Of a stretch of 30,845 bases of DNA, positions 10,262 through 13,429 are shown piece after piece (position 1 is the stretch's first letter; each line of letters opens with the position of its first letter). Location of the stretch: NCBI GenBank assembly GCA_002788475.1, contig PFRK01000037.1, positions 1 through 30,845 on the forward strand, read 5' to 3'. Under the pieces are notes generated by a model. The model was not told where the DNA came from. It ran no database searches and was given only the letters and a program-made list of their open reading frames with translations. The stretch comes from Candidatus Nomurabacteria bacterium CG_4_9_14_0_2_um_filter_32_10. GTDB lineage: Bacteria; Patescibacteriota; Minisyncoccia; Phycocordibacterales; UBA9973. Position numbers and translations under genes: made by a program.

Positions 10262-11524
10262 TTAATCAAAGTAGTTTTTCAACCTTGCAATCTTTTCATG
10301 CTGGCGAAGTTTTTCATGAACTTTGGCTTCTATCTGACGGATACGTTCACGAGTCACTCCAAATTCTTCCCCTACTCTCTCTAAAGTATGCTGAATACCA
10401 TCAACCAATCCATAACGCATCTCAAGTATTTTACATTCTTTAGGATTAAGTTCATTTAAAACTTCACGAATTTGATCAGACAAAATTCTTCTAGAAGATT
10501 CTTGATCAGGACGTAAAATTTTGTCATCAGGAATGAAATTTTCAAGAGTTGATTTATCATCATCATCTCCTACTGGTTGTTCGAGAGAAATAGTTTCTTG
10601 ACTAATATTTTCAATCACATGAATTTTCTCAACAGGAATACCCATTTCTATGGCAATTTCTTCCGCCAATGGATCCCGACCCAAATCTTGACTAAGTTTT
10701 CTATATGTTTGTTTATATTTTGAAATAGTTTCAACCATATGTACTGGTATACGAATAGTTCTACTTTGATCGGCTAATGCGCGAGTAATAGATTGACGAA
10801 TCCACCAAGTAGCATAAGTAGAAAATTTATATCCTTTAGTCCAATCAAATTTTTCTACTGCTTTAAATAATCCCAAGTTCCCTTCTTGAATCAAATCCAA
10901 AAGACTAAGATTAGCACTCCTACCTACATATTTTTTAGCGATAGAAACAACCAAACGTAAATTAGCTCTAGCTAATAAATTTTTTGCTTCTACATCACCC
11001 AATTCTATTCGTTTTGCAAGATCTTTTTCATCAACTGCATGAATTAGTGCATATTGTCCTATTTCTTTTAAATACATTTGAATAGAATCATGTATAGTGG
11101 ATTTATTTAAATCTTTATCAGAAATATCATTATCTAAATTAAGTAAATTTCCACCTTCCAAAACATCTATCCCAGCAACTGCAAATTTCTCATAAAGTTC
11201 ATCTAAAAATAAAATATTATTTTCGATATTCGGAAAAGTTTTTAATATTTCATCATAAGTAATAAACCCTCTTTTACGTCCTTTCTCTATAAGTTTATTA
11301 GAAAGACGAGTAAATTCTTCCACTTTTTTCCCTCCTGTAACTAATTTTTTAACCTTTGTTTTTTTGACCTGCCTCCCCGCCAACCTCGCCGAGCCTAGGC
11401 GGGCTTTTTTTGATATTTTACGAGACTTCTTAGTTATTTTTTTAACTTTTTTAATTATTTTCTTAACCTTTTTCTTTTTTAAAATTTTCATTTTTTTCTT
11501 TAATTTTTTATTTTTTATTTTCAT
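10262..11524 (-). CDS. rpoD: RNA polymerase primary sigma factor
   Basis: Region 1.1-like [37 protein letters not shown] and [10 protein letters not shown]. Confidence 0.97.
11368..11403. repeat. 36-bp in-frame GC-rich insert in rpoD (peptide [13 protein letters not shown])
   Basis: Ends are CCCGCC...GGCAGG on the coding strand; removing it restores KK-V-KK. Confidence 0.8.
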
Positions 11525-11588
11525 CCCATTAAAAATTTTAATAATAATTTTTTTGTTTTCTGCCCGTTAGCTAAATTTTTAACGGGAT
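11523..11588. repeat. Three-half-site CCCGTT/AACGGG element at the dnaG-rpoD junction
   Basis: 11523-11538 and 11573-11588 form a 16-bp inverted repeat with 1 mismatch; local hairpin 11563-11569/11580-11586. Confidence 0.65.
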
Positions 11589-11596
11589 AAATATTT

Positions 11597-13429
11597 TTAT
11601 TTCTTAAAACGATTATTTTTAATATTTTCCTTTCTTTTATTTATTTCGTTTATTTTTTTCAAAATTTCTATTTCTTCTTTCTTTCCTTTTAAATTTTGTA
11701 AATCCATCATTTTTTCCGCTAATTCTTCATTTAAATATTCCTCTTCTACATTCAGTAACATTTCATTTATATCTTTATCTAAGTTTTCATTATTTGAATA
11801 AAATTCTTCTGCCTCATAAATTAAATCTTCCTTAATATTTTTATAAATTTCTTTTGCTTTATTTAATTTTTTAAAGATTAACTCTGGGTCTATAATTCTA
11901 TTTTTTATACCTGTCTGTCCGATAGGAAGGCTCTCTTGCCAAAAAGCTATCCCTAAAAGTCTACGTTCAATAGGATCTTTCCTCATTTTTTTCCCTATAT
12001 TCTCTTTAGCAATTTTTGTTTCTTCAGTTTCAGATTTTAACTCCGATTCAACTTTTTTCAGATCTTCTATCAAAGCATCTTCAGCTATACCTGATTTATT
12101 ACTAATAAGTTTAATAAAATATGATTTTTCAATTGAACTTTCAATTGAATCAACATATGGTAATATTCTTTCTTTTATTTCTCTTCCTACTAATCTCGCT
12201 GAATCTAAACGATTTTTATGTGTATCTTCTTTATTATTATTTAAAATTTTATCTAAAATAAATTCTATTATATGTTTTGAATTGCGAATCGCTGCATGCC
12301 ATGCATCCACTCCCTGCCTACCGGCAGGCAGGCATTTTCCAGAAATTAAATCTGCTGGATCAACACCTTCTGGTAAAGAGACAACCTTTACATCCATTCC
12401 AAAAGAAAGAGCGATTTTGCCAGCTCGTGTTGATGCATTAAATCCTGCTCGATCAGCATCAAAAGCAAGAACTATATTAGTGGATAAACGACGTAATAAT
12501 CCTAAATTTGAAATAACATTTTCTTTGGAAACCGTAGAGTCTGAAAGTGCTGTACCTGAAGTAGCAACAGTATTTCTGAAACCAGCCTGATGAGATAAAA
12601 CTAAATCCATCTGTCCTTCAACTAAAATAGAAAAATTATTCTTACGAATAGAATCCTTCGCTTTATCTAATCCATAAAGAATTGCAGACTTACTAAAAAT
12701 TGGAGTATCAGGACTATTTAAATACTTGGCTTGTTCATATTTGAAATCTTCTCCACCAGAGGCGGATCCGCCTTCGGCGGAAAAAATCCTACCAGAAAAA
12801 GCAGTAATGCGACCACTCGAATCTGAAATTGGAAACATAATTCTACCTCGAAACCTATCATACATTCCCTTCTCAGTTTTTTTAGTTAGACCAGCAAGTT
12901 CAATCTCTTTATCAGAAAAACCATTTTTTTGAAGATAATTATATAATTCACGCCAATCATTTTTTACAAATCCAATCCTAAAATCTTTAATTGTTTTATC
13001 TTCTAAACCCCTTCCTTTCAAATAAAGAAGTACCTCTTTACTTCCTACTAAATTCTTTTCAAAGAATTTAGTAGATTCTTCCATAACTCTATACAATCTT
13101 TCTTTTTCACCTTCTTTTTCTCTACTAAATCCTGCAAGCGAAATTCCTGCTCTTTCAGATAAAATTTTTAATGCACCTTTAAAATCAAGCCCCTCAAATT
13201 CTTCTATAAAAGTAAAAATATCACCTTTAGCCCCACAACCAAAACAATAATAACTAGCACGATCTGGAGACACAAAAAAAGACGGAGTTTTTTCGTTATG
13301 AAAAGGGCATTTGGCTTTGAAGTTTGTACCTACCCGATCTAATTTTATGTAGGAAGAGACTATTTCTTCAATTGAAAGCCTCTCCTTAATTTGTTGAACC
13401 GGAGAGTTCGTCCCGTTAGAGATTTTCAT
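11597..13429 (-). CDS. dnaG: DNA primase
   Basis: CPFHNEKTPSF...YCFGC zinc-binding domain, FRGRIMFPI, KYLNSP, VEGQMD and AFDADRAG Toprim motifs. Confidence 0.97.
   Translation of the reverse strand: MKISNGTNSPVQQIKERLSIEEIVSSYIKLDRVGTNFKAKCPFHNEKTPSFFVSPDRASYYCFGCGAKGDIFTFIEEFEGLDFKGALKILSERAGISLAGFSREKEGEKERLYRVMEESTKFFEKNLVGSKEVLLYLKGRGLEDKTIKDFRIGFVKNDWRELYNYLQKNGFSDKEIELAGLTKKTEKGMYDRFRGRIMFPISDSSGRITAFSGRIFSAEGGSASGGEDFKYEQAKYLNSPDTPIFSKSAILYGLDKAKDSIRKNNFSILVEGQMDLVLSHQAGFRNTVATSGTALSDSTVSKENVISNLGLLRRLSTNIVLAFDADRAGFNASTRAGKIALSFGMDVKVVSLPEGVDPADLISGKCLPAGRQGVDAWHAAIRNSKHIIEFILDKILNNNKEDTHKNRLDSARLVGREIKERILPYVDSIESSIEKSYFIKLISNKSGIAEDALIEDLKKVESELKSETEETKIAKENIGKKMRKDPIERRLLGIAFWQESLPIGQTGIKNRIIDPELIFKKLNKAKEIYKNIKEDLIYEAEEFYSNNENLDKDINEMLLNVEEEYLNEELAEKMMDLQNLKGKKEEIEILKKINEINKRKENIKNNRFKK
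11910..11930. repeat. 21-bp degenerate CCTGCC/GGCAGG-family insert in dnaG (LPIGQTG)
   Basis: cctgtctgtccgataggaagg; removing it gives the in-frame WQES-IKN. Confidence 0.55.
12182..12211. repeat. Eroded copy of the rpoD insert in dnaG (RLDSARLVGR)
   Basis: 19/30 nt identical to 11372-11401; all 11 differences are transitions. Confidence 0.6.
12313..12332. repeat. 20-bp palindrome within a 7-codon insert in dnaG (CLPAGRQ)
   Basis: cctgcct-a-ccgg-c-aggcagg, one mismatch. Confidence 0.85.
12752..12781. repeat. Family A 30-bp insert in dnaG (SAEGGSASGG)
   Basis: tccaccagaggcggatccgccttcggcgga. Confidence 0.95.

Follow-up and report, generated by a model that had tools for sequence, protein, structure and literature searches.

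A probable relic of a 24-nucleotide palindromic element in the DNA primase gene of a Candidatus Nomurabacteria bacterium

Residues 406–413 of the DNA primase (dnaG) encoded on contig PFRK01000037.1 of Candidatus Nomurabacteria bacterium CG_4_9_14_0_2_um_filter_32_10, which read NRLDSARL, are very probably the relic of a 24-nucleotide (nt) element that was gained on the terminal branch of this lineage, lost its hairpin by erosion, and had its peptide kept by selection. The contig was analysed over its whole length of 30,845 nt, called the window below; it is contig C35 of a genome (G000) of 606 kb, 31.7% GC, and 58 contigs. The names of near-identical proteins in databases assign this genome to Candidatus Nomurabacteria / Paceibacterota. 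In what follows, G-numbers denote genomes, L-numbers sampled loci, and P-numbers database proteins. It appears that the relic arose as follows. A single insertion would have brought in a GC-rich imperfect palindrome from the A..T (Leu-type) subfamily of the element, which would also be the source of a copy in rpoD, the gene for the primary sigma factor. The element would have entered after the first base of a codon, with no target duplication, lengthening the N-terminus of a helix at a tolerated place. The strong G/C-to-A/T mutation pressure of a 32% GC genome would then have converted nearly all synonymous G/C sites and destroyed the hairpin, and purifying selection on the primase would have kept residues 2–8 of the insert. 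The gain would be independent of the Gln-type copies found at the same dnaG site elsewhere.

The insertion is seen in the alignment of orthologues. Among 120 primases at 65–87% identity, residues 406–413 face a gap in about 110, all of the closest sequences included, and in a 177-row DnaG alignment the insert is present in 11 rows and missing from 166, the sister sequence among these. On this comparison, residues 406–413 are a genuine 8-codon in-frame insertion. All 11 filled rows have the insert at the same nucleotide position, and in the same orientation and frame. An eight-residue insert, reading [A/T/V/I]RLDSARQ or a close variant, occupies this exact position in seven database proteins and in three genomes of the genus; the filled alleles of the protein set include P0078, P0083, P0086, P0109, and P0112, and G281, G229, and G201 have GC-rich copies at this nucleotide of dnaG. 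No filled allele was found among the 29 species representatives of the first genus sample. In an AlphaFold model of the primase, a helix (residues 387–401) is followed by a loop (402–406) and a second helix (407–428), and the insert lies at the N-terminal end of the second helix, just past the inter-helix loop, in the catalytic core. The predicted local distance difference test score of the model (pLDDT, mean 69) falls to 54 at residues 401–410. Solved primase cores can be aligned across the insert region. The model suggests that the site is a permissive surface position and points to no function of the insert. The element is also seen in reverse orientation at another dnaG site, near residue 185, in L003 (G179) and L066 (G298); the G298 copy shares its Gly-type core with the rpoD copy of the window.

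The insert belongs to a dispersed repeat family. The element is a 24-nt GC-rich imperfect palindrome, an intact example being L061:616-639 (plus strand) in G281. Searching 212 genomes of the genus with its 18-nt core, with up to 2 mismatches allowed, gave 102 matches in 46 genomes, at most 10 per genome, against 7 for a reversed-pattern control (genus-wide tallies take in the unpublished genomes G254–G256, on which no specific claim is based). As judged from 37 copies with their flanks, the conserved block is 24 nt long and the bases outside it are variable; CC stands 5' of the core in 32 of these copies and CNGG 3' of it in 31. Two variable positions co-vary, T..A (Gln-type) being present in 16/37 and A..T (Leu-type) in 14/37; this co-variation, which fits pairing in one of several registers and may just mark two subfamilies, is used here as a lineage marker only. 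In G000, the copies in dnaG, rpoD, and ligA are of the A..T type; at the dnaG site, G281 and G201 have T..A, and G229 is mixed (A..A). Between the G281 copy in dnaG (L061) and a copy in the G161 rpoD tail (L025), one of 24 nt is different, and therefore the dnaG and rpoD inserts belong to one family.

Comparison of filled with empty sites in dnaG and ligA gives exactly 24 added bases after the first base of the split codon, and no target duplication was found at either insertion site. Because 24 nt make 8 codons, the element cannot shift the reading frame; in the orientation and phase of the dnaG site it reads [A/T]RLDSAR[Q/L]. Long open reading frames (ORFs) contain most of the 37 sampled copies, in either orientation, and a minority are intergenic, with T runs after them. 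In-frame, translated copies occur in dnaG, rpoD, ligA, and an ORF of G000 of 637 aa, and a possible one in another of 222 aa. Intact copies are predicted to fold at -6.5 to -9.6 kcal/mol. Some copies have further features. Two perfect 18-nt cores that start exactly 24 nt apart form a tandem dimer at G139:C1:456288-456329. A copy in the 637-aa ORF (L116:2772-2800, contig C13) is in another frame and reads PPGLDEAGE, and the 222-aa glucosaminidase-like ORF (L117, contig C43) may hold an eroded copy, AHLDSVRQ.

Fresh copies are 75% GC, compared with 33% for the window dnaG copy and 31.7% for the genome. Each G/C site was classed by whether a transition there is synonymous, and the ancestor was taken from the family consensus. 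Against the A..T consensus, synonymous G/C sites in codons 2–8 have changed at 7 of 8 and replacement sites at 0 of 7 (Fisher p = 0.0012); with the rpoD copy as the ancestor, the values are 6/7 and 1/8 (p = 0.009). Codon 1 is a hybrid of one native and two element bases. Across four dnaG-site copies, the predicted single-strand folding energy weakens as GC drops (Table 1). Erosion of the window copy in codons 2–8 is synonymous-only, and its folding is lost.

An initial annotation, made from the letters of this DNA, had compared ten codons of rpoD (11372–11401, minus strand) with ten of dnaG (12182–12211, minus strand) and taken the latter for a transition-only, mostly synonymous decay of the former. 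The quoted codons are correct, and so is the count of 11 differences in 30 nt, all of them transitions with G/C in rpoD and A/T in dnaG, 9 of them synonymous; the two replacements are Gly/Asp and Ala/Val. The description as transition-only is accurate for insert codons 2–8 but not for the first insert codon, AAT (12212–12214), which had been missed and which is set apart from all copies of the family by one transition and a C>A transversion. The final Gly-Arg had been guessed to be native DnaG sequence; it is, and the Val before it is native as well, since insert-free orthologues have [AVI]-G-R there. Four of the 11 differences set this native Val-Gly-Arg against a different part of the rpoD insert. 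Most copies of the family have Asp, and Gly is a minor variant, also present in G298, G211, and P0125; therefore the Gly/Asp difference probably does not come from erosion of the dnaG copy. The rpoD insert itself consists of a full and a half element, together 36 added bases read as 13 codons (11366–11404), and it reads on into A-G-R-Q because the 12-nt half element follows the full one. At its place the nearest RpoD orthologues have Lys-rich sequence only. Descent of the dnaG copy from the rpoD insert has to be given up: both come from the dispersed family, and the composite rpoD insert is a sister copy of the dnaG insert, not its parent. The annotation had also proposed that DNA symmetry is lost while the peptide is kept. 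This is borne out by the window dnaG copy, in which the hairpin is gone (-0.9 kcal/mol), residues 2–8 are intact, and 7/8 synonymous G/C sites have mutated, but it fails as a general rule, since ligA and other dnaG copies have replacements. No DnaG with RLDSARL was met in a genome free of the family; the check was made on the three motif-bearing genomes with DNA (G201, G229, and G281), and all three hold further family copies.

The number of origins was examined on a primase tree of the 177 rows from which the insert columns were excluded. The insert needs at least 8 changes on this tree, 7 of them forced by well-supported branches. The window DnaG is sister to the insert-free P0004 (99*) within a clade of 71 rows, and the other 70 are without the insert. 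A single clade of insert-bearers is rejected by an approximately unbiased (AU) test on 45 rows (difference in log-likelihood 266, p about 7e-95), and filled alleles are found on terminal branches or on short shared ones (0.09–0.19); an attempt to relate erosion to branch length gave no result. Because the window copy is Leu-type and all the other dnaG-site copies are Gln-type, ending in Gln where the window copy ends in Leu, it is read as an independent gain. Taken together, the tree shows multiple origins at the dnaG site, and the window insert was most likely gained on its lineage's own terminal branch. The initial annotation had called this insert old. That appears right in the sense that it is older than the rpoD copy; it is not phylogenetically deep, given the sister and the clade.

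Several observations weigh against this account of insertion, erosion, and selection. Codon 1 has changed from Thr or Ala to Asn, a transversion included. The dnaG copies of other lineages vary in their residues (Ser/Pro, Leu/Phe, Arg-Leu/Pro-Ile, and five states of residue 1), and among the G/C-to-A/T changes of the seven ligA copies, 9 are synonymous and 5 are replacements. Just one fully eroded copy could be studied, and its ancestor is reconstructed from the consensus. The hairpin energies of intact copies are only modestly better than those of shuffled sequences (z -1.1 to -2.5), and therefore no claim of unusually stable structure is made. Finally, the insert is limited to a terminal branch of 0.093 aa changes/site, so that its being old depends on an assumed fast synonymous turnover. 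Four-fold sites differ by 45–66% from those of relatives in the same clade, with saturation at about 63%, and the GC content at third codon positions of dnaG is 18%; a turnover of G/C sites at several times the average rate is therefore to be expected. These values make full erosion within the terminal branch plausible.

The initial annotation went further and regarded such peptides as domesticated, that is, the eight residues would be useful to the primase. In favour of this, 0/7 replacement sites have changed against 7/8 synonymous ones, the RLDSAR core is retained in most copies at the dnaG site, and an insert that is fixed time and again at one place might confer an advantage. Yet about 94% of the orthologues, the sister included, do without the insert, its residues vary in other lineages, it sits at a loop/helix end where model confidence is lowered, and the data are explained no less well by purifying selection that acts on a tolerated extension of the helix. 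The data are thus read as purifying selection on a tolerated insert and not as a new function, and domestication seems unlikely.

It could also be reasoned that there was one insertion event, after which homologous recombination over a short tract of dnaG carried the filled allele from lineage to lineage. That all 11 rows agree in nucleotide position, orientation, and frame fits such a history, and the host bacteria co-occur in groundwater communities. However, the residues that flank each filled allele follow their own clade, synonymous sites are saturated between clades and leave little homology, the window copy is in a different subfamily from the others, and ligA shows the same pattern with the element in the opposite orientation. 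On this evidence, spread by recombination is a distinctly improbable explanation.

An insert ancestral to the genus, precisely lost many times and surviving in the window as an ancient copy, would account for the full erosion without further assumptions. Palindromes are deletion-prone, and the occurrence of the insert is patchy (11 of 177 rows, at least 8 changes). On the other hand, with an insert-free sister and clade, ancestry needs far more precise deletions than independent insertion needs gains. Nor does it agree with the Leu-type of the window copy when the other dnaG-site copies are Gln-type, or with nearly intact GC-rich copies such as that of G281, which cannot be ancient; moreover, no flanking direct repeat that could drive precise excision is present at the dnaG and ligA sites. 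We consider this history very improbable. That the resemblance is due to chance or to a native DnaG motif can be dismissed, even though R, L, S, A, and G are common residues and synonymous differences between GC-rich and AT-rich sequence are necessarily transitions in two-fold codons, because the stretch coincides exactly with an indel, GC-rich versions at the dnaG site match rpoD-tail copies at 23/24 nt, and a loosened peptide pattern, expected 0.06 times across the 606-kb genome translated in all six frames, is found 4 times.

The insertion and erosion of a selfish element, as favoured here for dnaG, has a parallel in ligA. At the N-terminus of the NAD-dependent DNA ligase, the element occurs in reverse orientation and reads ASFAESRR between KR and VQKLR. 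It is present at the same nucleotide in 7 of about 37 sampled LigA genes of the genus, in states from intact (G281) to half eroded (G061). The ligA N-terminus is a second recurrent target site of the element. The repeated use of one dnaG and one ligA nucleotide implies targeting; the only common features seen at the insertion sites are A-rich flanks and a purine-pyrimidine junction. At the dnaG site, native bases that follow the insert lengthen the stem to 8 bp. It is conceivable, although we hold it as a tentative idea only, that a codon-length hairpin inserts near nucleotide-precisely into A-rich R^Y contexts of essential genes in a homing-like, frame-neutral invasion, at least 7–8 times in dnaG and several times in ligA. 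If so, its products become fixed as protein while the DNA signal fades, and it would go on supplying the core proteins of these ultra-small bacteria with small insertions.

Candidates for mobilizing the element are the RAYT-like Y1 transposases, and they are candidates only. G000 encodes six such genes (Table 1), each flanked by its own distinct hairpin; the best NCBIfam match of their proteins is the REP-associated tyrosine transposase (RAYT), at 66.9 bits, below the cut-off of 80. In five genomes examined, the six Y1_Tnp-like genes of G000 among them, no RAYT gene flanked by the 24-nt element was found. In G000, G229, and G299, the distance from an element copy to any Y1 gene is about 1–3 kb or more; in G139, which has 8 copies, no Y1_Tnp match was obtained. 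The hairpin upstream of the RAYT-like gene on contig C5 has 12–13 nt in common with the 5' half of the element.

Among the closest known systems are the Rickettsia palindromic elements (RPE), which are in-frame palindromic repeats of about 100–150 bp in protein-coding genes, in families RPE-1 to RPE-10 (Ogata et al. 2000, summarised in PMC10969869). In both cases, selfish palindromes lie in frame in unrelated housekeeping genes of a reduced AT-rich genome and are translated into an extra peptide compatible with the protein fold. The present element differs in its length of 24 nt (8 codons), in its host phylum, Patescibacteria, and in that it strikes the same gene nucleotide in separate lineages, in both orientations, and in another frame too; there is no sequence relation. 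It works in the manner of an RPE and is not an RPE member. RPE copies deteriorate with time. Erosion together with purifying selection on a tolerated insert is what evolutionary theory and the RPE precedent predict.

REP and REPIN sequences are short GC-rich imperfect palindromes mobilized by RAYT (TnpA-REP) Y1 transposases (PMC2817692, PMC3333891); REPs are extragenic by definition and usually number more than 100 copies per genome (PMC2817692). The element resembles them as a dispersed, GC-rich imperfect palindrome in the range of 20–40 nt, some copies of which are at gene ends before T runs, and in the absence of target duplication, as expected of single-strand HUH transposition. In contrast to REPs, it has 1–10 detectable copies per genome, is found inside essential genes, and is without a cognate flanked rayt. 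Transposable elements of the MITE class (miniature, with inverted repeats; ERIC, BOX, and others) are non-autonomous and able to create translational fusions in host ORFs (PMC10969869). The element is likewise an in-frame non-autonomous repeat inside host ORFs, but MITEs are 50–500 bp long with terminal inverted repeats and target-site duplications, and it shows neither feature. The mobile GC clusters of yeast mitochondria are short GC-rich palindromes in an AT-rich genome, protein-coding genes included. They belong to a eukaryotic organelle, and some are bypassed rather than translated. The invasion by a GC-rich palindrome is alike in the two cases, with no sequence relation.

A literature search found no published description of such inserts in the candidate phyla radiation. 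What is new here is an element of exactly 8 codons with no target duplication, the repeated striking of one position each in dnaG and ligA, and the rejection of monophyly of the insert-bearers. The dnaG site offers a worked example of the fate of a selfish hairpin in an essential gene, with copies from intact to fully ameliorated at one nucleotide, and what is left at the end, a peptide, would go unrecognized by any repeat-finder. Some of the lineage-specific indels that are so far unexplained in Patescibacteria core proteins may have arisen in this way. The repeated, independent use of one nucleotide in dnaG and of one in ligA is a sign of a targeting mechanism of a kind that has so far not been described for REP-like elements.

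Table 1. Features of the window and related copies and genes in other contigs and genomes. Positions given as numbers only are those of the window; GC and predicted folding energy are given for copies of the 24-nt element.
Feature	Location	Strand	GC (%)	Folding (kcal/mol)	Basis or remark
dnaG, DNA primase, 610 aa, host of eroded copy	11597..13429	-			Pfam Zn_ribbon_DnaG, DNAG_N, Toprim; architecture complete
Eroded 24-nt element in dnaG, codons 406-413, no hairpin left	12191..12214	-	33	-0.9	Indel relative to orthologues; filled alleles
Native dnaG codons Val-Gly-Arg, directly 3' of insert	12182..12190	-			[AVI]-G-R in insert-free orthologues
Another GC-rich palindrome insert in dnaG, different family, CLPAGRQG	12310..12333	-			Orthologue alignment
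Further GC-rich palindrome insert in dnaG, Gly/Ser-linker family D1	12746..12785	-			Orthologue alignment
rpoD, primary sigma factor, 420 aa, host of fresh copy	10262..11524	-			Pfam sigma-70 regions 1.1-4; architecture complete
Fresh 24-nt element in Lys-rich N-terminal RpoD tail, A..T subfamily, Gly variant	11380..11403	-	75		Missing from closest RpoD orthologues
12-nt half element after the full element in rpoD	11368..11379	-			11/12 match to 3' half of T..A subfamily
dnaG-site copy of G281	L061:615-638	+	75	-8.6	Intact
dnaG-site copy of G229			67	-3.3	
dnaG-site copy of G201			62.5	-2.0	
ligA copy of G000, contig C36	L115:3993-4016				
Further ligA copies	L122, L126, L085, L091, L120, L136				
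RAYT-like Y1 genes of G000	C5:1539-2177, C6:2643-3308, C39:678-1349, C48:8601-9293, C36:10-708, C13:13583-14278				

The 24-nt element is one of several inserts in the two host genes. The window dnaG exceeds the length of most orthologues by about 30 aa because it has four inserts. One of these is a seven-residue insert, LPIGQTG, at aa 501–507 (window 11908–11928, minus strand), which looks like a second eroded palindrome insert of the same gene; among sampled orthologues, only P0057 has a similar sequence (LPIEQAG). The primase has four insertion hot spots, at aa ~217, ~364, 406, and 501 (window 11900–12790), and lineages differ in the hairpin-derived peptide found at these shared places; examples are EPCLPAGRDD in P0072 and P0100, a 16-residue insert in P0026, and RGHSQMGEAKN in P0023 and P0026. 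Short islands of at least 75% GC number 71 in G000, many of them palindromic, and 5 are inside the window. In relatives, the Lys-rich tail of RpoD receives at least 4 other insert families (PARNATHSVAGG-type, SRPKASG-type, ASSAIRRKGG-type, and others), as seen in L008, L044, L046, L010, L014, L049, L050, L058, L031, and L047.

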